Positions 33,717 through 62,272 of a DNA stretch of 63,265 bases are shown piece after piece. Every line of letters begins with the position of its first letter. Positions within the stretch are counted from its first letter, which is position 1. This DNA is from Candidatus Uhrbacteria bacterium (GTDB taxonomy: Bacteria > Patescibacteriota > Patescibacteriia > UBA9934 > UBA11717). The notes under the pieces were generated by a model. The model was not told the origin of the DNA. It did not search any database and saw only the letters and a list, made by a program, of their open reading frames with translations. The stretch lies in the NCBI GenBank assembly GCA_018701105.1, contig JABIWD010000062.1:1-63265 (forward strand), in the 5' to 3' direction. The translations under genes were made by a program, and so were the position numbers.

Positions 33717-33781
33717 TTTATTATCCATCCAGGGGCATCGCTCGCGAGCGACATACTGACTGACAAAATAAACTTCAAAAA

Positions 33782-34648: not shown

Positions 34649-34649
34649 T

Positions 34650-37145
34650 GTGAACATGCCAGGAGATATAGTCGAAAAGTTTTCAACACACTTGAAAAAC
34701 GTGCTAACAAGCGCGTTGTGTTCTGTTGTTGAAACCGGAACGGACCAGATCACACCCGAGCATCTACTGCTGGGCATCGCCACGGAAAAAGGCTCGGTCG
34801 GCGCAGAAATCTTGCGTAAAGCCGGCTTGAAGTCTGATGTGCTCAAAGAACACATCGGAATCTCTTCGCTGACCTCAGACATCACGCTCCCCAAAGCTGA
34901 TGCGCTACCTCAACTTTCGGAACATGCAAAGCGCGTAATCGAGAAAGCCGTTCTCACTGCGACCGTCTACGAGCATCGCCACATTGGAACGGAACACCTC
35001 ATTGCAGGAATACTTCAGGTTAGCAGCAAAGAGTTGAGCGCATTTTTGAAAACATCAGACGTGAACATCGACATAATCAGAAAGCAGTTGTCGATAATCA
35101 TGAAGAGCACGCAGCAATTTCCAAACATACAAATTCATACAGTCGACAAGTCCGCCGCGCCACAGAAGCCTGAGATCGAACCGATGTCAGATATAGAGGT
35201 CGCTGATGTCGAACCTACGAGCGATCTGCAGACTCTCGAGTTCTTTGCGACCGAACTCACCTCTTCAGAGTCGTTGAAGTCTCTCGATCCGGTGATTGGC
35301 CGCGACAAAGAGATCGTACGCATGATGGAGATACTCTCGCGAAGAACAAAGAACAATCCAATACTCGTCGGTGAGCCTGGAGTAGGTAAAACCGCTATCG
35401 TAGAAGGGCTCGCGCGCAACATCATCGAAGGAAACGTGCCTGGCGCGCTTTTGAACAAAAGAATATTCTCGCTCGACCTAGGAAGCCTCATTGCAGGTAC
35501 GGTTTATCGTGGAGAGTTTGGGGGGAGGCTCAAACAAATTATCGACGAGGTAAAAGACAACAACCAGATCATCCTATTCATCGACGAGGTGCACATGATC
35601 ATAGGCGCCGGCTCAGCATCTGGTTCACTCGACGCAGCCAACATGTTGAAGCCCGCACTCGCGCGTGGTTGGATTCGGTGTATTGGCGCGACTACTCCTA
35701 GTGAGTTCAAGAAACATATCGAACCCGACGGCGCGTTAGAGAGACGCTTCCAGATGGTGGACATTGTGGAGCCTTCCGTTGCTGACACTGTCGAGATTTT
35801 GCACGGGCTCGCACCGATCTATGAGAAGTATCACTGTATTACGATCGACAAAGACGCGCTCGACTACGCAGCAGAAGCGGCTGATCGTTATATTCAGAGC
35901 GCATTCCTACCAGACAAAGCGATCGACCTCATTGACGAGGCCGCCGCTGCGATTCGTGTAAAGCACTCATCACCGGAAGATCTTGCAGCAAAGCACCTTA
36001 CGCGTGATTTGCGAGAAACACGTGCGCAGAAACGAGCGGCTATCGTAGAGGAACGGTTCATGGACGCGAGTTTGCACAAGAGCAAGGAAGCCGAGATCGA
36101 AGACGAGCTGATTACAACTGAAAACAAACAGAAAGAAACCATCATTGGAAACATCGGCATTAACGATATCGCGCGCGTGATTGAACGCAGAACCGGAATC
36201 CGTGTCGTCGATATGATGGATAATGAGCGCAAGCATCTTGCTAGGATCGAGAAAGGCCTTGGCGAGCATATCTTTGGTCAGAAGAAAGTTATCAAACAAG
36301 TCGCAACTCACGTTAAGCGAGCTAAGGTTGGAATCAACCGCCAAGCGCGCCCACTAGCGAGCTTCCTGTTTGTTGGACCAAGTGGAACCGGAAAGAGTGA
36401 GCTCGCAAAACAGCTCGCAAAGTATGTTTTCCACGACAAGAAAGCTTTAATCCGACTCGACATGAGTGAGTTCGTTGAAAGTTTCTCTATCTCGAAACTC
36501 GTTGGCTCCCCCGCTGGATACGTTGGGTATCGAGATACGGCACTACTAACCGACCAAGTAAAGCAAAAGCCACATAGCGTGGTGCTCTTTGACGAGATCG
36601 AGAAAGCACATCCAGATGTACACAACTTGCTACTCCAGATTTTAGAACATGGTGAGCTTAAGGATGCTACTGGACGCACAATATCGTTCAAGAACACTAT
36701 TGTTATCCTAACGTCTAACATTGGAGCAGAGAAATTCCTGAACGGCTCCATCGGATTCACGCAAGACGGCGAGATTAGCCAGTCCGATGTCGAGAAAACT
36801 TTGCGAGATCAGATGCGACCGGAGCTCATAAACCGCATTGATCAGATCTGCGCCTTCAAACCGCTCGTAGCCAAAGACCTCGTGTCAGTTGCAAAACGCG
36901 AGCTCGCGATCCTGAAAAATAGCATGGAGGTCGACAACAAAGAGCTGGACTGGGCACCTGAAGTGCACGATCACATTGTAGCCTTCAGCCAATCGGACAT
37001 CGCAGGAGCCAGAAACATACGGCAAAAGGTTAACGAGTTGATTGCAAGTTTGATTGCAGACCAGCTTCTCAAACAACCAAAGCACGATTCCTTCTACATT
37101 TCTATCAACAAGGACAAGATCGACCTTGAAGCGAAAACACGGTAA
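34650..37145 (+). CDS. clpC: Clp/Hsp100 ATPase, ClpC-like
   Basis: 831 aa. Two Clp_N repeats ([10 protein letters not shown] / [10 protein letters not shown]), two AAA+ modules ([16 protein letters not shown]), no long ClpB-type middle domain. Confidence 0.85.
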
Positions 37146-37172: not shown

Positions 37173-38132
37173 ATGGCGGAACCAGATAAAAAGTTTGATC
37201 CCCAAGCCAAAGCCGGTCAGTTCAACACCAATAGAATCGCAGATGCGGTTCGTAAACGAGCGGGACGAGCGATCGAGTCCAAGATACAGACAGGGAGAGA
37301 AAAAGTTCAAGGACTTGGACAGCAGGCAGAGTCTCGTCTACGGGAGTTCGCGGGTGGCGGAGATCAAGAAGAATCAGAAGATGGTGAATCACCTTCAGAA
37401 CGAGGTGATTATTCTGCTAGGCTAAAGAGTCTGCGCCAAGGAAATTATCGTGATGCTAGTCCTGAATACGCAAAACTAAGGGGTGGCTTAGACACTTTCG
37501 AAAGAGAGAATCCAGAGTTTTCAAAATACGCCCGCAAGAAAATTCTACAGGCTCAAGAAGACGGTGATCTAAGAAAGACCGCCGAAGGCATAGGAGAAGA
37601 TGCTGAAGCTCTGAAAGCTGTAATTGAAGGTAAGTCCTTACTTGGAAAAACTAAGCTTTACTTAAAAGCCTTCGAGTACGGCTGGAAAGTTGCTGCGAAG
37701 CTAGACAAAAATATAAAAAAAGGAGGTCAAGCGTGGTGGATACTAGTGGTTGTAGTAGCGGTATTCAAGGACGTGTTCGACATGTTGATAACGTTTTTAA
37801 GCATACCGCCGCTACCAACTGCCCTGTTTGGTCCAACGACGGATACCGTGATCTCGATACTGTTCTTCGCATTCTTTTTAAGATTCCTCTGGGGAAAAGG
37901 CACCTTTATTTTCAGAATGATCCTGAAACGAATTGGACCGTCTTTCTTGATCGAAGCAATACCGGGAATGGCTTTTATTCCATTCTTCACCATCACTATC
38001 ATATATGCTTGGTGGAAAACCAATAAAATCCAAAAACAGTTACGCTCGGCTCGTGCCAAGCTTGGAAAGGAACTGAATGAGCTTGAAGAAAACAAACCAA
38101 AGATGATAGGCAAGAAAATGTCTAGATACTAG
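37173..38132 (+). CDS. hypothetical membrane protein
   Basis: 319 aa. The N-terminal half is charged and soluble. The C-terminal half has 3-4 TM helices. Confidence 0.6.
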   Translation: MAEPDKKFDPQAKAGQFNTNRIADAVRKRAGRAIESKIQTGREKVQGLGQQAESRLREFAGGGDQEESEDGESPSERGDYSARLKSLRQGNYRDASPEYAKLRGGLDTFERENPEFSKYARKKILQAQEDGDLRKTAEGIGEDAEALKAVIEGKSLLGKTKLYLKAFEYGWKVAAKLDKNIKKGGQAWWILVVVVAVFKDVFDMLITFLSIPPLPTALFGPTTDTVISILFFAFFLRFLWGKGTFIFRMILKRIGPSFLIEAIPGMAFIPFFTITIIYAWWKTNKIQKQLRSARAKLGKELNELEENKPKMIGKKMSRY

Positions 38133-38246: not shown

Positions 38247-39476
38247 ATGACATTCCGAATGCAGAAAATATTGGTCGTGACAGGATTTATTCTTGTCGTC
38301 GTAGCGTTCGCACTCGGGCTATACTTTGTGTTCTTTAAGGCTCCAACTGGACCTGAAGAAGTGTCACCAACGATCACGGAAGAAGGAACGGAACCTGGCG
38401 CGCTTCCTGGAACAACGGAAGCAGGCGACAGAACTCTGATAACTCCAGGAGAAGGCGAGCTTCCAACTCCAGAGCCCTCCCCTGTCGCAATAGGAGGACC
38501 TACAGAAGTTGGAGCACTTACCCTAACCGGTGTCACCAATCCATCTCTCGGAGCCGATGGCCGGTCACTCAACTTTTATGACCCAGCGGATGGAAAGTTT
38601 TACGCGGTGGACAAAGATGGTAACCGATTCGCATTGCTCCCAACAGAATATCCTGATGTAGACAACGTGGTTTGGAGCCCAGATGGCAGGAATGCTGTCG
38701 TGGAGTTTCCTGATGGCGCCAACATCGTGGTCGATTTTGCAACCGGCGACACTCACACGCTTCCACAACATTGGGAGGACTTTGATTTTTCACCAACCGG
38801 AGAGCAATTGATATCAAAGAGTATCGGAGTCGACCCTGGAAACCGCTGGCTCGTGATCTCGAATCCTGATGGATCGGGTGCAGATACGATCGCAGCACTT
38901 GGACGTAACGCGGACAAGGTACAAGTAAGTTGGTCACCAAACGACCAAGTTGTCGCCTTTTCAGACACCGGTGCGCTTACAAGTGGCTTTGGGCGCAAGC
39001 AGATGCTGGCGATCGGAAAGAACCAAGAAAACTTCCCAGGTATTGTAGTCGAAGGGTTTTCTTTTGAACCAAAGTGGAGCGAAGATGGATCACGCCTCCT
39101 ATACAGCACCCACGGACCCTCAAGCAACTACCAACCACAACTATGGCTTGTAGATGCACAGTCCGACACTCTTGGAGAAAATCGTCGTAGCGTAGCACTG
39201 AACACCTGGGCAGATAAATGCACATACTCAAACGCGACGATAGTATATTGCGCAGTTCCCCAGAGTCTTCCAGAAGGGTCAGGACTGCAAAGAGCGCTTG
39301 CGTTTGGAAAGCCCGACACGATCTACCGGGTCGATACCGATACAGGTATGACCGTGGTCGTCGGAACGCCAGAAAACCCAACGAGCATGTCCAACCTCAA
39401 CGTGAGTGATGACGGACGTACATTGTTCTATCAAAACGTATTGACCGGCACCCTACAACAAATTCAGGTGAAATAG
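38247..39476 (+). CDS. membrane-anchored TolB-like beta-propeller (PD40 repeats)
   Basis: N-terminal TM, Pro/Glu/Thr linker, then repeated WSPDG/FSPTG/WSPND/WSEDG motifs typical of PD40/TolB blades. Confidence 0.75.
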   Translation: MTFRMQKILVVTGFILVVVAFALGLYFVFFKAPTGPEEVSPTITEEGTEPGALPGTTEAGDRTLITPGEGELPTPEPSPVAIGGPTEVGALTLTGVTNPSLGADGRSLNFYDPADGKFYAVDKDGNRFALLPTEYPDVDNVVWSPDGRNAVVEFPDGANIVVDFATGDTHTLPQHWEDFDFSPTGEQLISKSIGVDPGNRWLVISNPDGSGADTIAALGRNADKVQVSWSPNDQVVAFSDTGALTSGFGRKQMLAIGKNQENFPGIVVEGFSFEPKWSEDGSRLLYSTHGPSSNYQPQLWLVDAQSDTLGENRRSVALNTWADKCTYSNATIVYCAVPQSLPEGSGLQRALAFGKPDTIYRVDTDTGMTVVVGTPENPTSMSNLNVSDDGRTLFYQNVLTGTLQQIQVK

Positions 39477-39479
39477 GAT

Positions 39480-40118
39480 ATGCATAATAAATTGCTATTA
39501 CTGATACTCGGAGCGCTCGCAGGAACAATCTTGTTGGTGTTCATTATCGTTGTCATCCCTGAAAAGTCACTGCAAACGCAAGAAATAGAGAGTGTCCCTG
39601 AAAAGCTCACGGAACCTCCGATTAGTTTTATAGACCCAATGCGAGGCAACCCTAAGGCAAACGTCACTATCATCGAATATGGGGACTTTGATTGCCCACT
39701 TTGTAAAACTGTTGAACCAGAACTCGTAGCCCTAATTGCCGAAGAGCCCAATAAGCGACGACTGGTTTGGAAAGATGCACCAAACGAAACAGCTCACCCC
39801 AACTCGTTTGTAGCCGCCATGGCAGCACGCTGTGCACAAAATCAAGGCCTTTTCTGGGATATGCACGACAAGATGATGCAGCAAGGCGTCGGGCTTGGTG
39901 CAGAGAACATAAAGAATATGGCAACCGAAGTTGGTTTGAATATTTCTGCTTTCGACAACTGTATGTCTTCGGAAATCACCCGGCCAGTCGTAGAGCACAC
40001 GCTGGACGAAGCAGTTGCTCTAGACCTAACAGGGACACCGACGATCTTCATCAACGGAGTTGAATATACAGGACCACTGACAAAGGATGGACTAACACTT
40101 GCGATTGAGGCTCTATGA
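39480..40118 (+). CDS. DsbA-family thiol:disulfide oxidoreductase
   Basis: N-terminal TM anchor, CPLC active site in IIEYGDFDCPLCK, C-terminal GTPT(I)FING cis-Pro loop. Confidence 0.85.
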   Translation: MHNKLLLLILGALAGTILLVFIIVVIPEKSLQTQEIESVPEKLTEPPISFIDPMRGNPKANVTIIEYGDFDCPLCKTVEPELVALIAEEPNKRRLVWKDAPNETAHPNSFVAAMAARCAQNQGLFWDMHDKMMQQGVGLGAENIKNMATEVGLNISAFDNCMSSEITRPVVEHTLDEAVALDLTGTPTIFINGVEYTGPLTKDGLTLAIEAL

Positions 40119-41467
40119 TGAGACGAGCGTTGATAATATCTTCCCTGCTAATCTTTTGTACCCTTTTAGCGGCCCCAGTTGCCATGGCGCAGGAAGAGAG
40201 CAAGAAGAAGAAAGTGGACGCGATTCCAATAGAGTATCAAGTTAATATTCCAGGGCTTGGTGACGAGGCGCAAATCGTATATGGTCCAACAGGTGGCTGC
40301 CCAGTTGACCATGTTTGCGTACGCACCATATCCTCCTACATAAACGCGTTTTATAAGTGGAGTGCGTCTGCTGCGATTATAATGGCCATCATTATAATAA
40401 TGATCGGTGGTATCGAATATATGATCGGATCGGCAGTTGGTACTATAGAAAAAGCAAAGGACCATATAAAAAATGGAGTGATTGGTCTTCTATTGGTCTT
40501 TTCAACGTCCGCAGTCCTGTCATTCGTGAACCCAAATATCACTCAAATAAGCGCAATGGAGCTACCCGCTATTGAAACGGTGTTCGTTACATCAGAGAAT
40601 ACAGATCAAGATAACGCCGATCCCGATCCTGGTAACCCTGGGCAAGTTGGCCTTCCACCGGTCACGACATCAAGTAACCCTCAAAAATTAGCCCTTCAGC
40701 CTTCAGGGTCTAATGTAACAGTGCCGAGCGCTCGACCGGCAAAGCAAGTTCCCGTGAATGAAGTGGTTACAGCGCCCACGGTCCCCTATTACAACCAAAG
40801 AAGCTACAGCGATGTTTACGGCGGGTGCGGCACTATCAAATCTTCTGGGTGTGGCCCAACATCCGCAGCAATGGTGCTCAGCTATCTGGAAGTCAATGCA
40901 GATCCACCAAAGGTTGCAAGCGCCTTCGCTGCTGACGGATTTAGAGCATGCCCCAAAGACGATGAGGGGAAGCCAATCTGTGACAAATGCAACGGTACAA
41001 ACTGGGGAGCGTTCACCTCCTCAAGTATTGTCACAGACAACAATCTAGTTGGCAGACAAATACAGGCAATCAACAGAAAAGAGATTCTATCACTCCTCTC
41101 AGCAGGAAAACCGCTTATTGCGTCAATGGGTTGTAGTCGTTTTACTAGGTATGGTCACTTCGTAGTGCTTACCGGAATGAATGCTGATGGTACAATTGCC
41201 GTGAACGACCCTAATAGCACATCACGGAATCAAACCACGGCAAGTGAATTATGGGAGGAAGTGTACGTGACCGCAGATGGAAAGCGTGACTGTACCCAGA
41301 GGGGTAACAGAGCAGCCCTTAAATCGGTCTGGCTAATTGAGTCAAAAGACGCAACGTCTAGAAATACGGAACTCGACGAAGAAGACATCTGGCCGAACGA
41401 CCACCTTCAACTAGCAAGTTCCTTCTTACTCGACTCGGTGAAGAACTTTGTACCTAAACCGCTATGA
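40115..41467 (+). CDS. T4SS-pilin-like (VirB2/TrbC-type) N-terminal module fused to a C39-like cysteine peptidase domain
   Basis: Signal peptide, then the pilin-like two-helix segment AAIIMAIIIIMIGGIEYMIGSAVGTIEKAKDHIKNGVIGLLLVFS. The C-terminal domain has YYNQ...SGCGPTSAAMVLSYL and GHFVVLTGMNADGTIAVNDPN, a papain-like Cys/His pair. ATGA overlap with dsbA. Confidence 0.7.
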   Translation: MMRRALIISSLLIFCTLLAAPVAMAQEESKKKKVDAIPIEYQVNIPGLGDEAQIVYGPTGGCPVDHVCVRTISSYINAFYKWSASAAIIMAIIIIMIGGIEYMIGSAVGTIEKAKDHIKNGVIGLLLVFSTSAVLSFVNPNITQISAMELPAIETVFVTSENTDQDNADPDPGNPGQVGLPPVTTSSNPQKLALQPSGSNVTVPSARPAKQVPVNEVVTAPTVPYYNQRSYSDVYGGCGTIKSSGCGPTSAAMVLSYLEVNADPPKVASAFAADGFRACPKDDEGKPICDKCNGTNWGAFTSSSIVTDNNLVGRQIQAINRKEILSLLSAGKPLIASMGCSRFTRYGHFVVLTGMNADGTIAVNDPNSTSRNQTTASELWEEVYVTADGKRDCTQRGNRAALKSVWLIESKDATSRNTELDEEDIWPNDHLQLASSFLLDSVKNFVPKPL

Positions 41468-42813
41468 GAATACGAAGCATAATCCTAGCGCTACTGATCG
41501 CCCTCCCCCTAATCACACCAGGGGCAGTCTTTGCTGCTGCATCCACTCAACCAGAAGTAATCGCACCACAACTCCAAGTTAACATCCCAGGATTAGGAGA
41601 GGATGATTTTAAAGGTAGCGTGATTGTTGGAACAAACCAAACACGCGAGCAGTGTACTCCTGGAAAAGTTTGCGTTGGTACAATATCAGTTTATCTGAAT
41701 GCGGTTTTCAAGTTCATGGTTACTGCGGGAATAATCTTCAGTATCGTGATCATAATGATCGGCGGAATTGAGTACATGGTGGGGTCGGCCTCTGGCTCTA
41801 TCGAAAAAGCAAAAAAGCACATAACCGGTGCGGTAACTGGACTCGCGCTACTTCTTGCCGCGACTTCGATAGTGACATTTATTAATCCAGATATATCCGG
41901 ACTTCGGTCACTAGAACTTACTATACTAAAAAATGTCCCGTACGCTCCAAAAACCGACGTGAAAGAGACCGCGTTTGGTACAGCTGTAAAAACCGACTTA
42001 CTTGGAGCTGACGGAGAAATGTTTAAAGGCGGGCTGCCAGTCAAAGACGCTGAAGGTAACATCGTAGATGACATCATGCTAGGAAATGGGTCAGATAACA
42101 TTTGGATGCACGAAAAAGCAATCATCCGTTTACAGGCGGCAGCTGGCCAGCTGAACTCCCAGAATACTGGCGATGTGAAGCCACATAAACTGGAATTACT
42201 TCAGACATATATATCGCCTCAAAAGGCAGCGATCAAATTTATTGAAAAATGTGTATACGACAACTGTTCACAAGACCCTTACTGCAACCCATTCCCTGAT
42301 GGTCAGGTAGTCGAAGGAAGTTACACTGATGGATTCACGCTCACATCTGCTATCAAGGAGGAGAGCAAGGACATGAAGAACGAGGAGTTCTATGCCCTAG
42401 TTGGCCAACAAGCACTCTTAAACGACACTCCCAGGTGCCCTTTCCAAACCGGATTCGCCGTCGCCGCAGTTTGCTATGGTGACTCTGTCAACAAAGCAGA
42501 CGCTGAATGCCAGAAAAAGCTTGAGAAGGTCATGAAAACTAACAACTTTTGCAGATCTGTAATGCATCCGTGGCTTTACGAATTCGAAGGCAAGCAAGTA
42601 CTTGATTCTACAAAGGGCTGTGAGGCTCCACCTGGAATCATGCTTATGCCAGAAGCAAACGAGACCTTCTGGAATAAATGCAACTCTTCACATACTTTTT
42701 CCTATACAGGCGACGGTACAGTGCTCTGTGCTAGAGAGTATGGTGATGCTTGTTCTGACGCAGGAGTGCGAACAAAGGATAATGTTGACTTAACTACAGG
42801 AAGATGCGACTAG
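41464..42813 (+). CDS. T4SS-pilin-like N-terminal module fused to a Cys-rich extracellular domain (possible degenerate M15/VanY-like fold)
   Basis: The N-terminal about 130 aa are clearly paralogous to 40115..41467 (IIMIGGIEYMVGSASGSIEKAKKHI). The C-terminal about 260 aa contain about 14 Cys. ATGA overlap with the previous gene. Confidence 0.65.
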   Translation: MRIRSIILALLIALPLITPGAVFAAASTQPEVIAPQLQVNIPGLGEDDFKGSVIVGTNQTREQCTPGKVCVGTISVYLNAVFKFMVTAGIIFSIVIIMIGGIEYMVGSASGSIEKAKKHITGAVTGLALLLAATSIVTFINPDISGLRSLELTILKNVPYAPKTDVKETAFGTAVKTDLLGADGEMFKGGLPVKDAEGNIVDDIMLGNGSDNIWMHEKAIIRLQAAAGQLNSQNTGDVKPHKLELLQTYISPQKAAIKFIEKCVYDNCSQDPYCNPFPDGQVVEGSYTDGFTLTSAIKEESKDMKNEEFYALVGQQALLNDTPRCPFQTGFAVAAVCYGDSVNKADAECQKKLEKVMKTNNFCRSVMHPWLYEFEGKQVLDSTKGCEAPPGIMLMPEANETFWNKCNSSHTFSYTGDGTVLCAREYGDACSDAGVRTKDNVDLTTGRCD

Positions 42814-42830
42814 TGTGCTAAAATAACCCC

Positions 42831-44108
42831 ATGTTCAGCTGTAGCTATTGTGATACGCAGCACCTAAAGTGGTCTGGGCGATGTACCGAATGCGGTAAAT
42901 GGGGGACGCTGGGCGAGGGTGAAAGCGTGAAATCCAAAAAAGCAACAACAGCTGCCAAACCGGCAGCTGTTTTGACGTTCAAAGATATTAAGACATCGGA
43001 GGTCAATAAACGGGTAACTGGGATATCCGAGCTCGATAGAGTGCTCGGAGGCGGACTCGTTCCCGGACAAGTGATCTTGCTTTCTGGTGAGCCAGGCGTT
43101 GGAAAGTCTACCCTACTCGCAAACCTTGCAGGAACGATGGACGGCACCATCATGTACGTCGCGGGTGAAGAGTCCCCCGCTCAACTTAAGATGCGGTTCG
43201 ACAGACTTGGATCTGAAACAAAGAACGTTAAGATCATCACAAAAACGCAGGTCGAGCCTGTCATATCTGCCGTGTCCAAAGAAAAGCCGCATCTCGTGAT
43301 CGTAGACTCAATACAGACAATGACCACGAGCGAGCACGAAGGTTCCGCTGGAGCGCCGACGCATTTGCGAGCCTCCACAGCGCAACTCGTAGCCTTGGCC
43401 AAGACGAGCAACATCCCAGTAATACTCGTCGGCCAGATCACCAAGGACGGCAACGTCGCGGGGCCTAAGATGCTCGAGCACATGGTAGACACTGTTCTAC
43501 ACTTCGGAGGTGACCCAAGACACGCATATCGCCTGCTACGCGCGTCCAAGCACCGTTTCGGAGGGATTGATGAGGTTGGGGTGTTCGAGATGACGGAGAA
43601 AGGCCTGCTCGGTGTAGAATCGCCCTCTTCCCTGTTCATAAACGACGGACCAGCCGCGCCAGGAACTGCAATGGTGTGTACAATAGAAGGGTCACGAGCT
43701 TTCCTCGTGGAGATTCAAGCGCTCGTGAACACGTCGAGCTACGGAACACCTGTTAGACGAGGCTCCGGCTTCAACTCGAACAGAATGCAGATGTTGCTCG
43801 CTATCATCGAGAAACATGGCAAAGTCTCGTTTTCCGGAGAAGACGTTTATGTAAACGTGGTTGGAGGCATGAATGTGAAGGAGCCAGCGGTCGATCTTGC
43901 GGTATGTGCCGCGCTCATAAGCTCGAAACTCGACAAAGCAATACCAAAGGATACAGTTATATTTGGAGAAGTCGGACTCGGAGGTGAAGTGAGATCGGTG
44001 CCTATGCACGATAGACGCGGCAAAGAGTCCAAGAGACTCGGTATGACCAAGACGATGTCGGCGGAGGATATTAAAACGATACGAGATCTAGTAGCTCGAA
44101 TTAAGTAA
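42831..44108 (+). CDS. radA: DNA repair protein RadA
   Basis: N-terminal C4 zinc finger (CSYCDTQHLKWSGRCTECGKW), Walker A GEPGVGKST, KNRFG-type motif (KHRFGG), Lon-like C-terminal domain. Confidence 0.95.
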   Translation: MFSCSYCDTQHLKWSGRCTECGKWGTLGEGESVKSKKATTAAKPAAVLTFKDIKTSEVNKRVTGISELDRVLGGGLVPGQVILLSGEPGVGKSTLLANLAGTMDGTIMYVAGEESPAQLKMRFDRLGSETKNVKIITKTQVEPVISAVSKEKPHLVIVDSIQTMTTSEHEGSAGAPTHLRASTAQLVALAKTSNIPVILVGQITKDGNVAGPKMLEHMVDTVLHFGGDPRHAYRLLRASKHRFGGIDEVGVFEMTEKGLLGVESPSSLFINDGPAAPGTAMVCTIEGSRAFLVEIQALVNTSSYGTPVRRGSGFNSNRMQMLLAIIEKHGKVSFSGEDVYVNVVGGMNVKEPAVDLAVCAALISSKLDKAIPKDTVIFGEVGLGGEVRSVPMHDRRGKESKRLGMTKTMSAEDIKTIRDLVARIK

Positions 44109-44119
44109 CTCGCGCAATT

Positions 44120-44209
44120 GTCATTCTGAGTGGCAACGTAAGAATCTCATCGTTCTAGAGCGCGCTCCTGGCATTATGAGATCCTCACGTCGTTCCTCCT
44201 CAGGATGAC
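44120..44209. repeat. MITE/REP-like element, copy 3 (reverse orientation of copy 1)
   Basis: GTCATTCTGAGTGGCAACGTAAGAATCTCAT (44120-44150), 25-nt spacer, ATGAGATCCTCACGTCGTTCCTCCTCAGGATGAC (44176-44209). The right arm is the exact reverse complement of 6273-6306. Confidence 0.85.
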
Positions 44210-45746
44210 AAAGAACACTGAAACTAATCTTACTATGAATATCTTTCAAGAAAACAAATATCCAGTGATACAAGGAAACGAGAAGGCTTCGACCGGTTTT
44301 TGTACCGTTTGGAATCAGGCCGATGTTGCCATAAAAGCGTCGCCAGAGCTTCTTGAGAAGGCTGCCATTGTAGGAACTCTGTATTCGCGTCAGGGAGTGA
44401 ACGTGGTTTTACGGAACCTCGCACTCAATCCGCATATACGGACCCTCGCACTCTGGGGGCACGGTCCTCTTTCAAATACTCCTTTTGGCACGAGTGGGAC
44501 CGATATCTTGAAAGCTCTCTGGAAAGACGGGGTGAACGACGACTCGACCGTGATCGGAACCTCGTTCCAATTGGAACAAGAGATCGATATTGAGGTCGTT
44601 CGGAAGATGATCACGAAAGTTGAACTTTTCGATCTGTCTGAACACGATTTGTGTACAGCCGTTTCAAAGATCGAGGCGACATCGTCTATGCCATACATGG
44701 ATTCAGTAGACTTCCCTCCTCCTGTCCCGCAAGAAATCTCTACGCTGCCATCAGAGAAGATCGGCTTCACAGTTCACGGCAACACCGTACTCGAAGCTTG
44801 GCGCAAACTCGTTTTTCACATTATGCGATACGGAACTGTTAAAGGTTCGCAGTACGGAATGGAACAAAAGGAATTATTGTCGGCACAATGGGTGATTCAC
44901 AATGAGCCATGCTTGTTCCCGCAAGACATACCCGAGGACTGGCCAGATCAACTCAAGGAAACTATCGGCGCTACGAGTGCAGCTATCGAGCAGTATCACG
45001 ATGTGTTCCTGAGTGCGAAAACAAAGGAGGGCGTGGCGTACACTTACGGCTCACGACTTCGCGACTGGAAGCTCGGCGATCATGTGGTCGACCAGGTCAA
45101 AGATGGACTCATCGCAAACCTAACATCGAGCCCAGACTCACGTCGTGCAATTGCAACTACACTGATCCCAGCGCAAGATGCATCTTCCAAGTCTCCTCCT
45201 TGCCTGATATCTGTACAGTGCATACAGAGCGAAGGTAAGCTAAATATGATAGCTTCTTTCCGTAGTCACGACATTTTCAAGGCAGCGATCCCGAATGCGT
45301 TCGGATTAATCGCCATGCACCAGGAGGTCTCGGACGCCACAGGATTCGAGCGCGGCTCACTCTGCATTCAGTCACATAGCGCGCACGTGTACGAAGGTGA
45401 CTTTGAACATGCAGAGAAGTTGATCAACTGCTCATACCTTGAACGTGATCCTGCGAAGGTATTTGATGCAATGTTCAGTGACAAGCGCGGAAGTATCGTC
45501 ATCCGAGTTGAGGATCGCGAGATCGTAGCCGAGCATCACACCGGTGACGGCGCGTTGATTGCAGAATACCGAGGAAGCTCGGCGCGTGATCTGACGTTAA
45601 AGCTCGGACATCTCAATATAATCTCACAAGTTTCCCATGCTCTCGACATTGGTATGGAGTTACAAAAAGCCGAGCATGCGATGAAGCTCGGACTTACATA
45701 CAATCAAGATAGACCGCTGCAGATTCAAATAAAAGAGGTGGTGTAG
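44205..45746 (+). CDS. thymidylate-synthase-fold protein (archaeal-type ThyA-like core) with extra N- and C-terminal domains
   Basis: The core SRRAIATTLIP...SPPCLISVQC...FRSHDIFKAAIPNAFGL...SHSAHVYE aligns by eye to ThyA motifs RR.I / PPC / (Y)QRS.D / P.N / H.Y. ATG 44205 lies inside the repeat arm, so ATG 44235 is an alternative start. Confidence 0.7.
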   Translation: MTKNTETNLTMNIFQENKYPVIQGNEKASTGFCTVWNQADVAIKASPELLEKAAIVGTLYSRQGVNVVLRNLALNPHIRTLALWGHGPLSNTPFGTSGTDILKALWKDGVNDDSTVIGTSFQLEQEIDIEVVRKMITKVELFDLSEHDLCTAVSKIEATSSMPYMDSVDFPPPVPQEISTLPSEKIGFTVHGNTVLEAWRKLVFHIMRYGTVKGSQYGMEQKELLSAQWVIHNEPCLFPQDIPEDWPDQLKETIGATSAAIEQYHDVFLSAKTKEGVAYTYGSRLRDWKLGDHVVDQVKDGLIANLTSSPDSRRAIATTLIPAQDASSKSPPCLISVQCIQSEGKLNMIASFRSHDIFKAAIPNAFGLIAMHQEVSDATGFERGSLCIQSHSAHVYEGDFEHAEKLINCSYLERDPAKVFDAMFSDKRGSIVIRVEDREIVAEHHTGDGALIAEYRGSSARDLTLKLGHLNIISQVSHALDIGMELQKAEHAMKLGLTYNQDRPLQIQIKEVV

Positions 45747-45798: not shown

Positions 45799-47853
45799 TT
45801 ACTCTGGTGAGTTGCGACTGAGGAACCGTTCGAGTTCGTCTGCTAGTTTTTTATTGTGTTCAAGCTCTGGATCGGTGTCTAGAATCTGTTCGGCTACGTC
45901 GCGTGCTTGTGATATCAGGGTGTGATCAGATAAGCTCGCGAACTGGAATTCAGGCAATCCTGACTGTCGGGTTCCAAAGCGATCTCCTGAACCTCTGAGC
46001 TTGAGGTCGATCTCGGCTAACATGAACCCACTATCGTGTTTAACCATGGCTTCGAGCCTCTCTTTTGTTGACCCGCTCATACTCGTTGGATGCAAGAAAC
46101 ACGTTGCCCTGTCTGACGATCTGCGCACTCGACCCCTCAATTGGTGCAATTGAGCGAGTCCAAACCTCTCTGCCCCCTCAATAAAGATAGTAGTAGCATT
46201 TGGAACGTTCACTCCGACCTCGATAACGGTCGTGGAGACCAATACGTCAATCTCTCCATTGCGGAATTTTGTCATTATCTCGTCCTTCTCCTTTGCCTTC
46301 ATCTTGCCATGAAGCTCCTGAATACTAAATGATCTCAGGTGATTTTTACTCAGTTTCATCTTCAGCTCTTTCACAGAGTCTGCCTCAGATCCTTCACTGA
46401 CATCAATAAACGGACAAACTACATACGCCTGAAATCCCTGTTTAAGTTTCTCGCCGATGATCCCGTAAGCTTCTTTGTCCTGAGACGGTCGCAAAAGAAC
46501 TGTCTCGATCTCGCCACGCCCCGGTGGCAGCTCGTCCAGTATCGAAATGTTCATGTCACCATACAACGCCATAGCAAGTGTGCGCGGAATCGGAGTAGCT
46601 GTCATCGACAAGAAATGTGGCACGATATCGCCGCGCCCTGCTACGAGCTTCTTACGCTGTTCAACACCAAAGCGATGTTGCTCGTCTACGATAACAAGAG
46701 CAAGTTTAGGGATCGCAAGCTCGTCTGATAGCAACGCATGAGTGCCAACCACGATTGCGATCCTGCCATCTACGAGTGCTTCGAGTATTAGCTTCCTCGT
46801 TGACGACTCACCATTAATCTCCTGATATGAGCTCGTCAAAAGCGCAATCTGAACCTCGGGTCCGAGCGTTTCCTGAAGTCCGGATGCTTGTTGCACCGCA
46901 AGTATCTCTGTTGGGGCTAGGTATGCGCTCTGAAAGCCCTGGAACGCCGTATTTCCGGCCGCTAACGCTGCAACAACCGTTTTTCCCGACCCCACGTCAC
47001 CTTCGAGCAAACGATGCATAGGAGTAGCATTTTCCATGTCCTGCATAATCGCAAAAGTAGCCTTCCTTTGCGCATCTGTCAGTGCAAATGGCAACTTCGA
47101 TATCGTCTCTTTTACAAACGGTAAATCCATCTCAATCGCATGCGCCTTGGACAGCTCAATATGCTGTCGGGCTCGGACGTGCGCGATCTGGTGAATCAAC
47201 AACTCGGCGAACTTCATCCTACGCATCGCCTTCTCCCAAGACTCCTGCTCCTCCGGAAAATGTAAAGCCGCAATCGAACTCGCAATCGAAGCAAGATCAT
47301 AATCCGCCACAACATTCTCCGGTATCCACTCCTCCATCTCATCAACCGCCTTCATCGCATTCTTAACAGCATTACGCCTCCCCTTCTGCGCCATCTTTCC
47401 TGACACCGAATAGATCGGCACGAGTCTTCCTGTGTGCTGTGTTGGCCCACTGTCCTTAATTGTCTCGAACTGCGGGTTCACGATGCTCAGACCAAACTTG
47501 TCATCGATCTTTCCTGACAGCGAAACTTTGTCCCCCACCTTCAACGTCTTTGCAATATACGGCTGATGAAACCAAACAGCAGTAATCGTCCCCGTAGCAT
47601 CTTCGATAGTGGCCTCGGTCAGAGTCATTTTCTTCCTAGGACTCCGCCGTGATCGGATACTCGTAATCGATCCTTGGACGGTCGTGGTCTCACCTGGCGA
47701 CAAATCGGCGATCCCTCGAATTGTCCGGTAATCCTCGTATCGAAATGGAAATGCCAAAAGAAGGTCGCGAACAGTATCTATTCCCAACTTTCGATAATTG
47801 ACAGACAGCTTGGGTCCAATCCCGGGCAATGCAGTTATCGGATGATTGATCAT
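45799..47853 (-). CDS. recG: ATP-dependent DNA helicase RecG
   Basis: 684 aa. Wedge/OB N-terminus, GDVGSGKT, DEQHRFG, TATPIPRT, QLRGRVGR-type motif (QLRGRVRR). Confidence 0.95.
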   Translation of the reverse strand: MINHPITALPGIGPKLSVNYRKLGIDTVRDLLLAFPFRYEDYRTIRGIADLSPGETTTVQGSITSIRSRRSPRKKMTLTEATIEDATGTITAVWFHQPYIAKTLKVGDKVSLSGKIDDKFGLSIVNPQFETIKDSGPTQHTGRLVPIYSVSGKMAQKGRRNAVKNAMKAVDEMEEWIPENVVADYDLASIASSIAALHFPEEQESWEKAMRRMKFAELLIHQIAHVRARQHIELSKAHAIEMDLPFVKETISKLPFALTDAQRKATFAIMQDMENATPMHRLLEGDVGSGKTVVAALAAGNTAFQGFQSAYLAPTEILAVQQASGLQETLGPEVQIALLTSSYQEINGESSTRKLILEALVDGRIAIVVGTHALLSDELAIPKLALVIVDEQHRFGVEQRKKLVAGRGDIVPHFLSMTATPIPRTLAMALYGDMNISILDELPPGRGEIETVLLRPSQDKEAYGIIGEKLKQGFQAYVVCPFIDVSEGSEADSVKELKMKLSKNHLRSFSIQELHGKMKAKEKDEIMTKFRNGEIDVLVSTTVIEVGVNVPNATTIFIEGAERFGLAQLHQLRGRVRRSSDRATCFLHPTSMSGSTKERLEAMVKHDSGFMLAEIDLKLRGSGDRFGTRQSGLPEFQFASLSDHTLISQARDVAEQILDTDPELEHNKKLADELERFLSRNSPE

Positions 47854-53094: not shown

Positions 53095-53796
53095 TCAATT
53101 CCCTCTGGCAAAAGTAACGCCCCAAACAACCTCAACACCGGACCTCTTAAGCTCGCGTGCCACCGCCGACATGGTCTTCCCTGTCGTATAGACGTCATCG
53201 ACGAGAATGACGTTCGGCGGAACGATAATATTTGTGTTCACCTCAAACACCCCATCAAAAGATCGCTCAGCTCTTTTTTTATCACTCAAGCTAGCCTGAG
53301 GCTTCTGAAAATGCCGAGCCCGCTTTACAAGATTCAGTTCAAGATCGATCCCAAGCTCCATCGCTATTATACGAGCTAGCACAATGCTCTGGTCAAACCC
53401 ACGCGCTCGAGCTCGCATCGGATGTAGCGGCACGGGCACGATCACCCAGTTCTTACTCGGAACTTGCTGCGTCGCATTGAGCCACTGAGACAAGATCGAG
53501 CTTATGTGGGGCTCGGCCTCGCGTACAAAGCGATACTTCCATAGTCTGACTAGTTTTTTTGAAAGAATATTCGCATACCACGTCGCACTAACAACGCCAT
53601 CGAGCGAATGGTCGTAATGCTCCGAACATCGCGCGCCATAAGTCGTGATCGCGTCGCACCCGGGACAGTGCTGAGGATACCTGCAAACAAAAACAGCGCG
53701 ACATTCTACACACAAGAGGAATCCGTCGCGCTGGCATTTTATGCACTGCTGGGGGAAAATTGCATTGCGTAGTCTATGTATCCACTTTAATTCCAT
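53095..53796 (-). CDS. comF: ComF family protein (phosphoribosyltransferase-type)
   Basis: N-terminal Cys clusters (C.KC...C.EC, CPGC), C-terminal PRT motif VILVDDVYTTGKT. Overlaps the upstream gene by 10 nt. Confidence 0.85.
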   Translation of the reverse strand: MELKWIHRLRNAIFPQQCIKCQRDGFLLCVECRAVFVCRYPQHCPGCDAITTYGARCSEHYDHSLDGVVSATWYANILSKKLVRLWKYRFVREAEPHISSILSQWLNATQQVPSKNWVIVPVPLHPMRARARGFDQSIVLARIIAMELGIDLELNLVKRARHFQKPQASLSDKKRAERSFDGVFEVNTNIIVPPNVILVDDVYTTGKTMSAVARELKRSGVEVVWGVTFARGN

Positions 53797-54350
53797 TGAA
53801 AATTAGCTACTAACCACAATTCTCCACGCTTTTCCAGAGAAATCGTTGCTGTTTTGTACTCTATAGTAGTATTGGTTCGCGTACCCAGCTCAATCTCGTT
53901 CTGCACGGCTACTGCGTATACAACGCTTCCAGACTCCTCGCTCCCTGAGCTCAATGCAGCCGACAAAGCTCTTGTGCTCACACCGCGAAACGACTCTGCA
54001 TCAACATCTGTAACGCCACTTTGAAGAGTCGCGTGATACTCAGGCGTACTCAATTCCTTTACCTCGTTCACGTTCTCAAAAGGAACATCTGTCGAATATG
54101 TTCCAAATCTCTCAGCAAAGTTCATGGCTACAACTCGAGCCGATGCCGCGTCTGCGGTAACCGGAATAACTTCTGAAGCCGACGGTGTGGTATCTCGAAT
54201 CACAGCCTCTGGAGCCACGGGCTCTGGCACGGGCTCTGGGACTACTTCGCCTCCTCTAAACAAGAAGAACCATAGCAAGAATAACATCACCAATATCAAC
54301 ACTATAAGTGCCGCTACTATTGACCGCCTTTGTCCTGGGGTAATTTGCAT
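53787..54350 (-). CDS. bitopic membrane protein (VirB8-like role is only a guess)
   Basis: 187 aa. N-terminal TM, Pro/Glu linker, about 120-aa extracytoplasmic domain ending ...RGELWLVANFQWN (looks NTF2-like). Starts 1 nt after the VirB4 gene. Confidence 0.6.
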   Translation of the reverse strand: MQITPGQRRSIVAALIVLILVMLFLLWFFLFRGGEVVPEPVPEPVAPEAVIRDTTPSASEVIPVTADAASARVVAMNFAERFGTYSTDVPFENVNEVKELSTPEYHATLQSGVTDVDAESFRGVSTRALSAALSSGSEESGSVVYAVAVQNEIELGTRTNTTIEYKTATISLEKRGELWLVANFQWN

Positions 54351-54351
54351 A

Positions 54352-56418: not shown

Positions 56419-57103
56419 ATGATGTATCCAAATCTAACTCTCCCGCATTTTTTAAAGGCTGTGCCTCGGAAACTATCGGGTTGTAAGCGTTGTAATAAAG
56501 CTCAATCAAGCCCTGAGTGTCCAAGCGAGCTCCAGAGAGGCCCATGCTATTCAAGCTACCAAGAGCCTGCGCCATGCGCTGTTCTAGTTCCTGCTGCCGT
56601 ATCTTGAACTGTTTTTCCGAAAGTTTAATACGCGAGCCGGGAGTCAGTACTGCGCCAAGTCGTGTAAAGAAACCTTTCTTGTCGCTCGCCAAGGGATCGA
56701 AAGGCACCACGATGAAGAAGCGCTTACTCATAATCTCACTGTCAGACACAAGGTCTTTTATGAAATCGATGTAATCCGTCATCTGATTCCGCAGCAACTC
56801 GTTCTCCAATTCCGAGCTTGCCTGCCTCATCCTTCCAATGTAATCCTCGATTCGCATTCTTCGTGAATGAATCACAACCTGCAACGGGTAATCGAGACCA
56901 TTCAAAAACTGCATGTACGCCTGAATCACCGCCTGCTGCTCGTCGTTAGACTTCAGTGCAAAGTTGATACTCGAAACAATCGCGACTCCACGTACTGATC
57001 CATCTTTCAGAATCACCATGTCGTCACGAATTTCTGAGATATCCAAATACTTCTGCGTCGCAGGTCGTTTGGCTTGAACTAGTTTTTGTTTTTTCTTTGC
57101 CAT
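56408..57103 (-). CDS. VirB4 N-terminal-domain-like protein (separate ORF)
   Basis: 231 aa from ATG 57103. YLDISEIRDDMVILKDGSVRGVAIVSSINFALKSNDEQQAVI resembles the extreme N-terminal region of Gram-positive-type VirB4 ATPases. 11-nt ATGGCTTTTGA overlap with the ATPase gene. Confidence 0.6.
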   Translation of the reverse strand: MAKKKQKLVQAKRPATQKYLDISEIRDDMVILKDGSVRGVAIVSSINFALKSNDEQQAVIQAYMQFLNGLDYPLQVVIHSRRMRIEDYIGRMRQASSELENELLRNQMTDYIDFIKDLVSDSEIMSKRFFIVVPFDPLASDKKGFFTRLGAVLTPGSRIKLSEKQFKIRQQELEQRMAQALGSLNSMGLSGARLDTQGLIELYYNAYNPIVSEAQPLKNAGELDLDTSYGF

Positions 57104-57104
57104 A

Positions 57105-57545
57105 TTATTTTTCCGCCTCATCGGGCATATACACTCCACCGGTGTTCACGACTAGAGATAGGTCTCTTAAGTGCGAACCGCTCAGTGGTGGCTTTCTATA
57201 CGGAGGAGGTGGAGGAGGTGGTTCTTTTCTGTTCATCATTGCTTTGATCTCTGCATCTGATCGATTCTTACTCCAAACCCTGATAGAAGGGCGGCGTAAT
57301 GTCTGCAGATAGTTCAACATTATGTAGTGAAATGGCTGTCCATGAATTCTTACAAAAGCAATCACTAAGGAAATTGCAGCGGTTGGGATAGCGAAGACCA
57401 GGAACAGAGAAAAATCGAAAAGTCGATTCTGAATAACGATTATTAGCCCCGCAACCATGATAGTCACAAACTGTCGCACCGTGATTGGTCCGATAATCTT
57501 ACTCTCCACGTCTAGAAATTGTGGGATAACAAATTGATCTGCCAT
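57105..57545 (-). CDS. PrgI-family (VirB3-like) membrane protein
   Basis: IPQFLDVESKIIGPITVRQF followed by two TM helices. Poly-Pro in the C-terminal tail. Confidence 0.7.
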   Translation of the reverse strand: MADQFVIPQFLDVESKIIGPITVRQFVTIMVAGLIIVIQNRLFDFSLFLVFAIPTAAISLVIAFVRIHGQPFHYIMLNYLQTLRRPSIRVWSKNRSDAEIKAMMNRKEPPPPPPPYRKPPLSGSHLRDLSLVVNTGGVYMPDEAEK

Positions 57546-57562
57546 AAACCTATTTTATCACA

Positions 57563-59476: not shown

Positions 59477-59505
59477 ATCAACAATACAATCCGGAATTAA
59501 ATTTT

Positions 59506-62256: not shown

Positions 62257-62272
62257 GAGATATTTCAAAGGT

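Follow-up and report, generated by a model that had tools for sequence, protein, structure and literature searches.

A probable T4SS-linked envelope module encoded directly upstream of radA in Candidatus Uhrbacteria

A run of five co-oriented genes ending in radA was detected in a 63,265-nucleotide stretch of DNA, referred to here as the window, from Candidatus Uhrbacteria (Patescibacteria, ABY1; genome size, 0.89 Mb). Judged solely from their spacing and conservation, these genes apparently form a tight, co-transcribed unit. The first four encode exported envelope proteins, namely an anchored propeller, an anchored DsbA and two proteins in which a signal peptide is followed by a VirB2/TrbC-type hairpin. 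The best explanation of the findings as a whole, with a probability of about 0.6, is that the hairpin-hydrolase, propeller and DsbA genes specify a T4SS-linked envelope module with which radA is co-expressed. Patescibacteria account for a large part of bacterial diversity, and their T4SS, which is essential in the only genetically tractable member, has no known relaxase or coupling protein. Co-localization of T4SS genes, radA, recG and comF in ABY1, including the idea of a link to DNA handling, is already published (2025; PMC12102498); the anatomy of the operon, the pilin-hydrolase fusions and the spread of the arrangement beyond ABY1 appear to be new.

Layout of the operon and its surroundings

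The ORFs and successive gaps given in the initial annotation (3, −4, −4 and 17 nt, the last separating gene 4 from radA) were all recovered in the sequence (Table 1). Its statement that it saw no terminator ahead of the MITE-like element agrees with a consensus scan, in which no terminator-like sites were detected in the intergenic gaps of the run; plus-strand matches were only intragenic (38306, 38760 and 43828). The total number of terminator-like matches was not above that in shuffled sequences (13 versus 8.7 ± 2.9), and promoter-like matches were at chance level (14 versus 10.6 ± 3.5), with one 9/12 match (42755 to 42783) falling within the 3′ end of gene 4. As both scans were at chance level, they were left out of the evidence.

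Table 1. Features of the window around the radA-terminated operon
Feature	Coordinates	Strand	Basis
clpC (Clp_N + two AAA modules)	34650..37145	+	Pfam, synteny
Hypervariable gene X	37173..38132	+	no family match; topology only
Gene 1, membrane-anchored 7-bladed beta-propeller	38247..39476	+	PD40 23.5 bits; model pLDDT 89.3; fold matches; alignments
Gene 2, membrane-anchored DsbA-type thiol oxidase	39480..40118	+	Thioredoxin_4 97.4 bits; DSBA 57.9 bits
Gene 3, hairpin + Peptidase_C39_2 fusion	40115..41467	+	C39_2 58 bits; T4SS_pilin 32.7 bits
Gene 4, hairpin + VanY/M15-like fusion	41464..42813	+	T4SS_pilin 30.6 bits; alignment; fold matches
radA/sms	42831..44108	+	TIGR00416 461 bits vs cutoff 403
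MITE-like dispersed repeat, ∼86 nt	44109..44204		terminal inverted repeats GTCATTCTGAG/CTCAGGATGAC
Thymidylate-synthase-like gene with DUF4346	44205..45746	+	profile matches, synteny
recG, convergent	45799..47853	-	Pfam; synteny
T4SS core operon with unassigned large genes	53095..62268	-	comF-like 53095..53796; VirB4 ATPase 54352..56418

The radA gene is single copy in the genome, and its product carries all of the features by which RadA/Sms is recognized: the KNRFG motif (here KHRFG), Walker A (GEPGVGKS), a C4 zinc finger (Cys 4, 7, 18 and 21), a Lon-like C-terminal domain (ChlI/Lon-type match at residues 325 to 391) and an equivalog score. The MITE-like element reported downstream of radA proved to be a real dispersed repeat, with at least 10 near-full copies at 84 to 93% identity and many half copies in the genome, and folds into a long hairpin (−37.2 kcal/mol; z = −3.6). 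In the genus of the window, the insertion of this repeat separates radA from the gene that follows. That gene, which is thymidylate-synthase-like, is found 3′ of radA within the family only and comes after 1 to 6 nt in other genera; the operon probably once ended with it.

On the other side, clpC is the conserved upstream neighbor of the module in ABY1, being present in nearly all ABY1 loci, with four to six envelope genes separating it from radA. HtpX and LemA are encoded upstream of clpC in the window, giving this side a proteostasis flavor. The product of gene X has a charged N-terminal half and three C-terminal hydrophobic segments. An ORF occupies the same position in 67 related loci, 58 of which encode at least two TM-like segments, and topology alone is common to them: a jackhmmer search against these 67 ORFs detected only the same-genus orthologue (35% identity), the sequences being unalignable beyond the genus. 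The T4SS core operon is encoded on the opposite strand, past recG and ∼10 kb away from radA, and no pilin (PF18895) or hydrolase domain was recognized within it. The module of this ABY1 window is physically outside the virB4 operon.

The encoded envelope proteins

Gene 1 had been described as TolB-like, which holds at the level of the fold but not at that of the family. TolB is recognized by an equivalog score, an N-terminal TolB alpha/beta domain and its nature as a soluble periplasmic protein of a diderm. The TIGR02800 score was 23.1 bits against a cutoff of 343, and a TM helix (residues 3 to 30) and a disordered Pro/Glu/Thr linker (39 to 71) replace the TolB N-domain in front of the propeller (∼75 to 409); identity with the TolB of Tol-Pal was rejected on these grounds. 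The gene is single copy in the genome, and Cys325 and Cys335 are invariant in alignments. A fold search returned only generic propellers of the WD40, PD40, tricorn and TolB types, without a functional clue.

The product of gene 2 has a hydrophobic N terminus and CPLC at residues 72 to 75, and exhibits the thioredoxin fold, CxxC motif and exported or anchored state of DsbA-type oxidoreductases; the equivalog models of E. coli-type DsbA were not reached. The claim that a thiol oxidase adjoins Cys-rich exported proteins was upheld by composition, as cysteine accounts for 3.1% of the gene 4 product and 2.2% of the gene 3 product versus 0.75% genome-wide, and the median in the C-terminal domains of the fusions of relatives is 4.6%. 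DsbA fits such Cys-rich cargo.

Genes 3 and 4 had been annotated as two pilin-enzyme fusions. Both do encode hairpin::domain fusions of ∼450 aa, with a Sec signal peptide, a VirB2-like two-helix hairpin and a C-terminal globular domain of 250 to 300 aa, unlike a stand-alone pilin subunit of ∼100 to 180 aa of the kind that polymerizes into pili. The hairpins (residues 69 to 137 in gene 3 and 72 to 140 in gene 4) matched PF18895 (T4SS_pilin) above the Pfam cutoff of 26.6 bits. Hydrophobic segments, corresponding to the signal peptide and two TM segments, start at residues 1, 78 and 120 in gene 3 and at residues 1, 74 and 119 in gene 4; modeled hairpin helices span residues 71 to 107 and 113 to 140, where pLDDT is only 55 to 67. 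Membership of the T4SS_pilin family also calls for an accompanying VirB4-type ATPase gene, and here a virB4-like gene is situated ∼10 kb off on the opposite strand.

The word pilin is therefore apt as to the hairpin family, but the type is that of VirB2/TrbC T4SS pilins with ordinary Sec signal peptides. Type IV pilins are marked by a prepilin leader with G/FTLxE, an N-terminal hydrophobic helix and PilD processing; the N termini observed were of the Sec type (…APVAMA/QEE and …AVFA/AAS) and matched no pilin/N_methyl family, and this identity was rejected. A surface module of the type IV or competence pilus kind, with a Tol-Pal-type TolB and DNA fed to RadA, would fit the part that RadA is well known to play in the natural transformation of other bacteria. 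T4P-dependent competence also exists in Saccharibacteria (PMC10633639). Such a module is nevertheless extremely improbable here and was rejected, as the pilin family is the wrong one, prepilin signals and type IV pilin domains are absent from both fusions and the propeller scores far below the TolB family cutoff.

In gene 3, a linker connects the hairpin to a papain-like Peptidase_C39_2 domain of the C39_2/C70 type (223 to 367), with putative catalytic residues, read from the sequence, in GCGPTS (Cys) and GHFVVL (His). C39_2 domains as a class are not proven peptidoglycan hydrolases. The corresponding part of gene 4 is a Cys-rich (14 Cys) VanY/M15-like domain that is probably inactive. Active M15/VanY enzymes have His, Asp and His as zinc ligands in H-x(3-6)-D and E-x-x-H motifs, and these motifs are retained by three orthologues (L022, L023 and L047) as CPHxTGxxVD and EPWHFE; the window copy reads CPFQTGFAVA and HPWLYE, in which the three ligands are replaced by F, A and L, so that the enzyme part of the earlier description probably does not hold for gene 4. 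Relatives of this domain were taken from syntenic loci. A word-based homologue search detected only the domain itself and its same-genus orthologue, the window copy had no Pfam match, orthologue L023 scored 19.1 bits for VanY, below the cutoff of 25, and an orthologue profile gave no meaningful match to PDB sequences. The top PDB folds were VanX (1r44; E, 0.024; probability, 0.96) and the M15 endolysin LysECD7, which are supportive only, as the model is poor (mean pLDDT of only 56).

Relatives exhibit a wide range of domains at this position. T4SS_pilin was detected in 84 of 88 orthologous-position proteins, a few of which also match TrbC (PF04956), and every main class of peptidoglycan hydrolase is represented among the 88: VanY (16), M23 (13), M15 (9), NlpC/P60 (7), C39_2 (5), Amidase_2 (4), M15_4 (4), SLT (4) and glucosaminidase (2). 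The first fusion is only 46% identical within the genus, and over its N-terminal part only, the C-terminal domain having been replaced, whereas its neighbors are 83 to 88% identical. Such swaps at one conserved position, even within a genus, would be a marker of host-wall specificity.

The same domains are, however, ordinary cell-wall enzymes, and the operon might be a housekeeping one, in which the hairpin is a mere anchor and the fusions, DsbA and propeller, unconnected with any secretion system, reshape the wall of the cell that makes them as it grows and divides. The hairpin also heads unrelated proteins of 598 aa and 3600 aa on contig C12 and, because of this, may be a general anchor instead of a T4SS-specific part; the position of the ABY1 module outside the virB4 operon points the same way. 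We nonetheless consider an autolysin role quite unlikely. Outside ABY1, pilin and propeller genes, including a pilin::amidase fusion, are found inside PrgI/VirB4 arrays, and the extreme turnover of the first fusion together with the presumably dead second fusion fits a role in interaction or conflict better than one in core growth. An array of five short PF18895/TrbC-type pilins is present elsewhere in the genome, on contig C43.

Linkage of the module to radA and its possible roles

The initial annotation had proposed conservation of the pilin-radA linkage in relatives as a check, and the linkage proved to be strongly conserved there. A pilin fusion is encoded directly upstream of radA in 19 of the 19 informative order-level loci (median gap, 2 nt) and in 58 of the 60 class-level loci containing radA (median gap, 5 nt). 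Recurrence of one gene order throughout these sets is far beyond chance. Gaps of 1 to 6 nt between pilin gene and radA persist at class-level divergence (RadA identity, ∼50%), while the intervening pilin genes swap domains and vary from one to three in number.

Across the phylum, propeller and VirB2-like genes co-travel beside radA. One layout, present in 17 non-ABY1 genomes of 10 families, has virB4, the pilin/propeller genes and radA on one strand, where radA closes a PrgI/VirB4 array, and recG convergent. All 14 testable non-ABY1 genomes with the module 5′ of radA had virB4 2.4 to 17 kb upstream on the same strand, and three further non-ABY1 genomes with such an array were present in the phylum draw. 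The order at one locus (L129) is PrgI - x - VirB4 - x - propeller - RadA with recG convergent, and the pilin::Amidase_2 fusion lies inside the virB4 array of another (L107). Among the matches to RadA from these lineages, a single one was informatively named, as Candidatus Doudnabacteria (65% identity). At all loci with the pilin/propeller module 5′ of radA, recG is conserved. That the T4SS/pilin arrays of many families end in a recombination helicase gene offers a concrete, conserved genetic hint of DNA involvement.

In a second layout, seen for example in Saccharimonadia, radA directly follows clpC and virB4 is far off. Direct clpC-radA adjacency was present at 10 of the 35 loci from other classes, one of them in a Saccharimonadales genome, and the history of gene order alone could therefore explain the place of radA: an envelope cassette would have been inserted, in the ABY1 ancestor, into an ancient clpC-radA stress operon like that of Firmicutes, and tight packing in a 0.9-Mb genome would keep the order without a functional tie. 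The finding would then reduce to a well-documented operon insertion into clpC-radA. The presence of clpC 5′ of the module at almost every ABY1 locus is consistent with this, as are HtpX and LemA before clpC in the window. In Southlakia epibionticum, the single Patescibacterium studied genetically, RadA (SEML1_0510) is moreover dispensable and encoded apart from the essential T4SS. We regard this account as unlikely, given the same-strand arrays outside ABY1, where none of the 14 loci inspected had a recognized clpC separating virB4 from radA, the short pilin-radA gaps that outlast RadA divergence and domain swaps, and the fact that recG accompanies the module, not clpC.

The initial annotation also tied the module to the processing of incoming DNA, a tie that we infer with comparative support. 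It gains support because radA ends virB4-containing arrays in other classes and is weakened because the module may be no more than an insertion into an old clpC-radA operon; the idea had, moreover, been put forward for ABY1 before (PMC12102498).

For the preferred reading, that of a T4SS-linked envelope module with radA co-expressed, the following roles are proposed. The hairpin would put both protein ends outside the membrane, where DsbA would oxidize the Cys-rich C-terminal domains. The fusions would take the hydrolase role that VirB1, PrgK or CwlT have in other T4SSs, local peptidoglycan cutting letting the apparatus or pilus through the wall, and may in addition open the wall of the host cell where the two cells touch. 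The dead M15 copy may be a wall-binding module, and the propeller may be the partner with which the hairpin proteins assemble or dock. An old clpC-radA unit may have captured, or been captured by, T4SS accessory genes, leading to co-expression of radA, and the pairing may have been kept because recombination capacity (RadA, with RecG and ComF nearby) is wanted during T4SS activity.

A bolder version, which we consider unlikely, would make the relaxase-less T4SS of much of the Patescibacteria (ABY1, a Doudnabacteria-like lineage and eight or more other families) a DNA-traffic machine that hands its products to RadA, RecG and ComF. Hairpins with interchangeable wall-cutting domains would breach the wall of a partner, matched to its chemistry and perhaps as an enzyme-decorated pilus of the conjugative type, and co-transcribed RadA would drive recombination or salvage of the incoming DNA.

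Comparison with known systems

The clpC operon of Bacillus subtilis has the order ctsR-mcsA-mcsB-clpC-radA-disA. As in that operon, clpC is 5′ of radA on the same strand; unlike there, ctsR, mcsA/B and disA were not seen, and the ABY1 loci have their envelope genes in between. The ComB system of Helicobacter pylori is a relaxase-less DNA-uptake T4SS with a VirB2-like component that works with recombination proteins in transformation, and provides a precedent for a functional link from a T4SS to RadA. It differs in belonging to a diderm and in not being known to have pilin-enzyme fusions or radA linkage.

In the Saccharibacterium S. epibionticum ML1, a T4SS and a VirB2-like pilin array are essential (Wang et al. 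2023, PMC10633639). Both organisms have several divergent PF18895/TrbC-type pilin paralogues of a monoderm T4SS; those of S. epibionticum are short and within the T4SS cluster, away from radA, whereas the pair in the window are 450-aa enzyme fusions.

A close match is the Patescibacteria-clade T4SS of ABY1, which is chromosomal, relaxase-less and MPF-FATA-like with PF18895 pilins, and the window has exactly that neighborhood. These loci commonly include comF, recG and radA, for which functional coordination was suggested (Quinonero-Coronel et al. 2025, PMC12102498). Families were counted there within ±20 genes of virB4, and the radA/recG link was given for ABY1 only; the same-strand virB4 … radA arrays described here add 10 further families. 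The propeller, the propeller-DsbA-pilin::hydrolase-radA operon and the 1- to 6-nt coupling of radA are not described in that study, and the portions of its supplementary files available to us contain no radA, recG or PD40 entries.

The same study found most VirB2-bearing genomes to be without a recognizable VirB1 and concluded that biogenesis of the VirB2 pilus is VirB1 independent (PMC12102498). At the loci described here, it is the VirB2-like hairpins that carry fused hydrolase domains. The VirB1-type hydrolases of monoderms (PrgK of pCF10, TraG of pIP501, CwlT of ICEBs1 and TcpG of pCW3) are likewise membrane anchored, extracytoplasmic and T4SS encoded, and draw on SLT, glucosaminidase and NlpC/P60/CHAP domains, types that recur at this locus in relatives. 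They have a single N-terminal TM anchor and two catalytic domains per protein, SLT/CHAP, whereas each fusion in the window has a signal peptide, a VirB2/TrbC-like two-helix hairpin and one domain, predicted to be C39_2-like in one copy and a dead M15 in the other. The "missing VirB1" of these systems may thus be fused onto VirB2-like hairpins.

Domain content of the genes upstream of radA

The five co-oriented open reading frames of the initial annotation were confirmed exactly in the sequence, with successive gaps of 3, −4, −4 and 17 nt (see table). A consensus scan detected no terminator-like sites in any gap between genes 1 to 5; the few plus-strand matches were all intragenic, and neither promoter-like nor terminator-like matches exceeded shuffled controls. 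The neighbours are an unassignable membrane protein upstream and a thymidylate-synthase-like gene and convergent recG downstream, followed by a type IV secretion system (T4SS) operon with VirB4 and comF. Upstream of the module (genes 1 to 4) lie genes for LemA, an HtpX-type M48 protease and ClpC; as these are co-directional with the module, the run at 32958-45746 mixes proteostasis, envelope and DNA-repair genes. The position between clpC and the propeller gene (gene X) was occupied in 67 related loci; alignment failed beyond the genus (35% identity within it), and 58 of the 67 proteins had a charged N-terminal half and at least two C-terminal hydrophobic segments. A short ORF (~226 to 243 amino acids) abuts the VirB4 ATPase gene upstream in the window, and a short ORF likewise directly precedes VirB4 in L129, a locus from a distant class.

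Coordinates of features in the window, in other contigs of the same genome (C-numbers) and in the related locus L129
Feature	Position	Strand	Remark
LemA, HtpX-type protease, ClpC	32958-37145	+	
Gene X	37173-38132		between clpC and propeller
Gene 1	38247-39476	+	propeller
Gene 2	39480-40118	+	DsbA
Gene 3	40115-41467	+	hairpin fusion
Gene 4	41464-42813	+	hairpin fusion
Gene 5	42831-44108	+	radA
Repeat copies	44109-44204, 6278-6361, 33618-33689		also on C3, C5, C23, C47, C48, C50 and others
Thymidylate-synthase-like/DUF4346 gene	44205-45746		
T4SS operon with VirB4 and comF	~10 kb further on	opposite	
VirB4; abutting short ORF	54352-56418; 56408-57139		
L129 short ORF; VirB4	4098-4778; 4781-6625		
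PF18895 pilin array	C43:24862-27181		five genes, 135-180 aa
Hairpin-domain genes	C12:17505-19301; C12:19305-30107		598 aa; 3600 aa

Gene 1 is single-copy in its genome; in its product, a disordered Pro/Glu/Thr linker connects a membrane helix at the N terminus to a seven-bladed beta-propeller (PD40 repeat). The structure model of this protein (pLDDT 89) matched generic propellers only, and the TolB family score was 23 bits against a cut-off of 343; the label "TolB-like" was, therefore, correct for the fold but not for the family. Gene 5 encodes a complete RadA/Sms (TIGR00416, 461 bits versus 403), as annotated. The gene 2 product is a DsbA that is anchored in the membrane and carries a CPLC motif. 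Cysteine makes up 3.1% of gene 4, 2.2% of gene 3 and a median of 4.6% of the relatives' C-terminal domains, versus 0.75% genome-wide, and an alignment of relatives showed an invariant Cys pair in the propeller. Given these Cys-rich domains and the Cys pair, an adjacent DsbA makes sense, in agreement with the earlier argument for a thiol-oxidase beside Cys-rich exported proteins.

The products of genes 3 and 4 each have a Sec-type signal peptide followed by a T4SS_pilin domain (PF18895; 32.7 and 30.6 bits, cut-off 26.6) with two hydrophobic helices. By this domain assignment, the hairpin is of the VirB2/TrbC type of T4SSs and not a type IV pilin; of the initial "pilin-enzyme fusions", the fusion of a pilin domain stands and the pilin type does not. 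A type IV pilus or Tol-Pal reading was contradicted by the domain tests (PF18895 pilins, TolB score). The C-terminal part of gene 3 is a papain-like Peptidase_C39_2 domain (58 bits) with the Cys in GCGPTS and the His in GHFVVL present. That of gene 4 is a Cys-rich, VanY/M15-like domain, as detected by alignment with syntenic orthologues, in which all three zinc ligands are replaced (CPFQTGFAVA and HPWLYE versus CPHxTGxxVD and EPWHFE in the orthologues). A profile search gave a below-threshold VanY match in one orthologue, and VanX and an M15 endolysin were the top structural matches to a gene 4 model of low confidence.

T4SS_pilin matched 84 of 88 proteins in orthologous positions. Their C-terminal domains comprised VanY/M15 (16, 9 and 4), M23 (13), NlpC/P60 (7), C39_2 (5), Amidase_2 (4), SLT (4) and glucosaminidase (2), indicating that a constant hairpin anchor carries a rotating panel of peptidoglycan hydrolases. 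Such a panel might also belong to a housekeeping autolysin operon with the hairpin as a generic anchor, a second alternative that we consider improbable. Relative to a same-genus genome, ClpC, the propeller, RadA and RecG had 83 to 88% identity and gene 4 had 60%; gene 3 aligned over its N-terminal 194 residues only (46%), its C-terminal domain being unrelated. Judged from these identities, fusion turnover is fast. The genome contains nine PF18895 genes, namely, genes 3 and 4, five on contig C43 and two on contig C12. Those on C43 form a tandem array of short pilins away from the virB4 operon, and both C12 proteins begin with a VirB2-like hairpin domain.

Gene order and a repeat insertion in ABY1 relatives

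The organism is a Candidatus Uhrbacteria (Patescibacteria/CPR, ABY1-type). In its relatives, radA was found in 57 of 61, and 20 neighbourhoods were retrieved. All 19 informative neighbourhoods had the order clpC, gene X, propeller, dsbA, one to three PF18895 fusions, radA and convergent recG. Public genomes yielded 458 loci with a propeller profile; the top 80, from Uhr-, Magasanik- and Falkowbacteria and other Patescibacteria, had the same gene order. A pilin fusion immediately preceded radA in 19/19 and 58/60 loci (median gaps of 2 and 5 nt), these two samples sharing some genomes and being phylogenetically non-independent; the pilin-radA linkage, whose conservation had been proposed as a check, is thus kept in relatives. 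In two class-level relatives (L052 and L070), recG directly followed the pilin fusion and radA was absent from the locus; in a Falkowbacteria locus (L095), radA directly followed the propeller, the intervening DsbA and pilin being absent.

The 96-nt spacer 3′ of radA contains a dispersed repeat, which folds as an extended hairpin (−37.2 kcal/mol, z = −3.6). This 86-nt, MITE-like element has terminal inverted repeats (GTCATTCTGAG ... CTCAGGATGAC) and occurs in at least 10 near-full and many half copies in the 0.89-Mb, 63-contig genome, end pieces of 29 to 30 nt being much commoner. As half copies lie between LemA and HtpX, repeats bracket the HtpX-to-radA gene run. In other genera of the family (L002, L003 and L004), the thymidylate-synthase-like gene starts 1 to 6 nt after radA or overlaps it, indicating that the repeat separating the two in the window genus is a later insertion; outside the family this gene is absent from the site. 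These arrangements suggest that the operon was probably once longer, reaching the thymidylate-synthase-like gene.

Two radA layouts across the phylum

Of 151 Patescibacteria genomes drawn evenly, 108 contained radA, and 40 radA neighbourhoods were retrieved from these. No radA match (E ≤ 1e-30) was detected in the other 43, many of them >95% complete, and absence from whole families (e.g., f18, f30, f31 and f44 of the draw) suggests lineage-wide loss. The module was present in 5/5 same-class loci. Among the 35 loci from other classes, a propeller, pilin or DsbA gene was directly upstream of radA in 14, usually with convergent recG downstream, and one more had a pilin 2 kb upstream; clpC was directly upstream in 10, and about ten had neither arrangement. 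The clpC-radA pairing, also found in Bacillus, lends some weight to the main alternative, in which the module simply sits within an old clpC-radA operon and the order is inherited; we regard this explanation as rather unlikely.

The two layouts contrast sharply in the position of virB4. In 14/14 testable module-type genomes, virB4 shared the strand of radA and lay 2.4 to 17 kb upstream of it; in 10/10 clpC-radA genomes, the two genes were separated by >100 kb or located on different contigs. Both genes were on one contig in 36 genomes of the draw and at most 17 kb apart in 21 of these, on opposite strands in the four ABY1 pairs and on the same strand in the 17 others, which span ten families. 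In L129 the array reads PrgI, x, VirB4, x, propeller and RadA, with convergent recG; in a second (L107), VirB4, x, x, pilin, propeller, pilin::Amidase_2, propeller and RadA. The RadA of one module-type genome had its closest named match in a Candidatus Doudnabacteria MAG (65% identity). One clpC-radA genome belongs to the Saccharimonadales; the RadA of S. epibionticum is non-essential and distant from its essential T4SS.

Proposed function and relation to known systems

The data directly establish the domain content, the topology class, the gene order with its conservation and the physical association with virB4 arrays; the steps proposed below are inferred. Our preferred reading, to which we assign a probability of about 0.6, combines wall-cutting T4SS fusions, a propeller partner and co-expression of radA, the functional meaning of the radA coupling being its weakest part. 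After Sec export, the hairpin would be embedded in the membrane, its two ends facing the exterior, where DsbA would oxidise the C-terminal domain. The fusions would then cut the wall locally, as VirB1, PrgK or CwlT do in other T4SSs; domain swapping suggests that they may also target the host wall, and the dead M15 copy in gene 4 could be a binding module. The propeller, which travels with the hairpin proteins, may for this reason be their partner, and radA would be co-expressed as the last gene of the unit.

In the literature searched, we found no propeller-DsbA-pilin::hydrolase-radA operon with 1- to 6-nt coupling, no hydrolase panel on VirB2-like hairpins, no propeller as a conserved partner, no same-strand virB4 ... 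radA arrays beyond ABY1 and no contrast with clpC-radA lineages. The T4SS and its pilin array are essential in a Saccharibacterium (PMC10633639). A 2025 study described the T4SS of Patescibacteria together with VirB2-like pilins (PMC12102498); in that study, VirB1 homologues were detected in few genomes, most VirB2-bearing genomes being without VirB1, and comF, recG and radA were commonly located in ABY1 T4SS loci, for which coordination was suggested.
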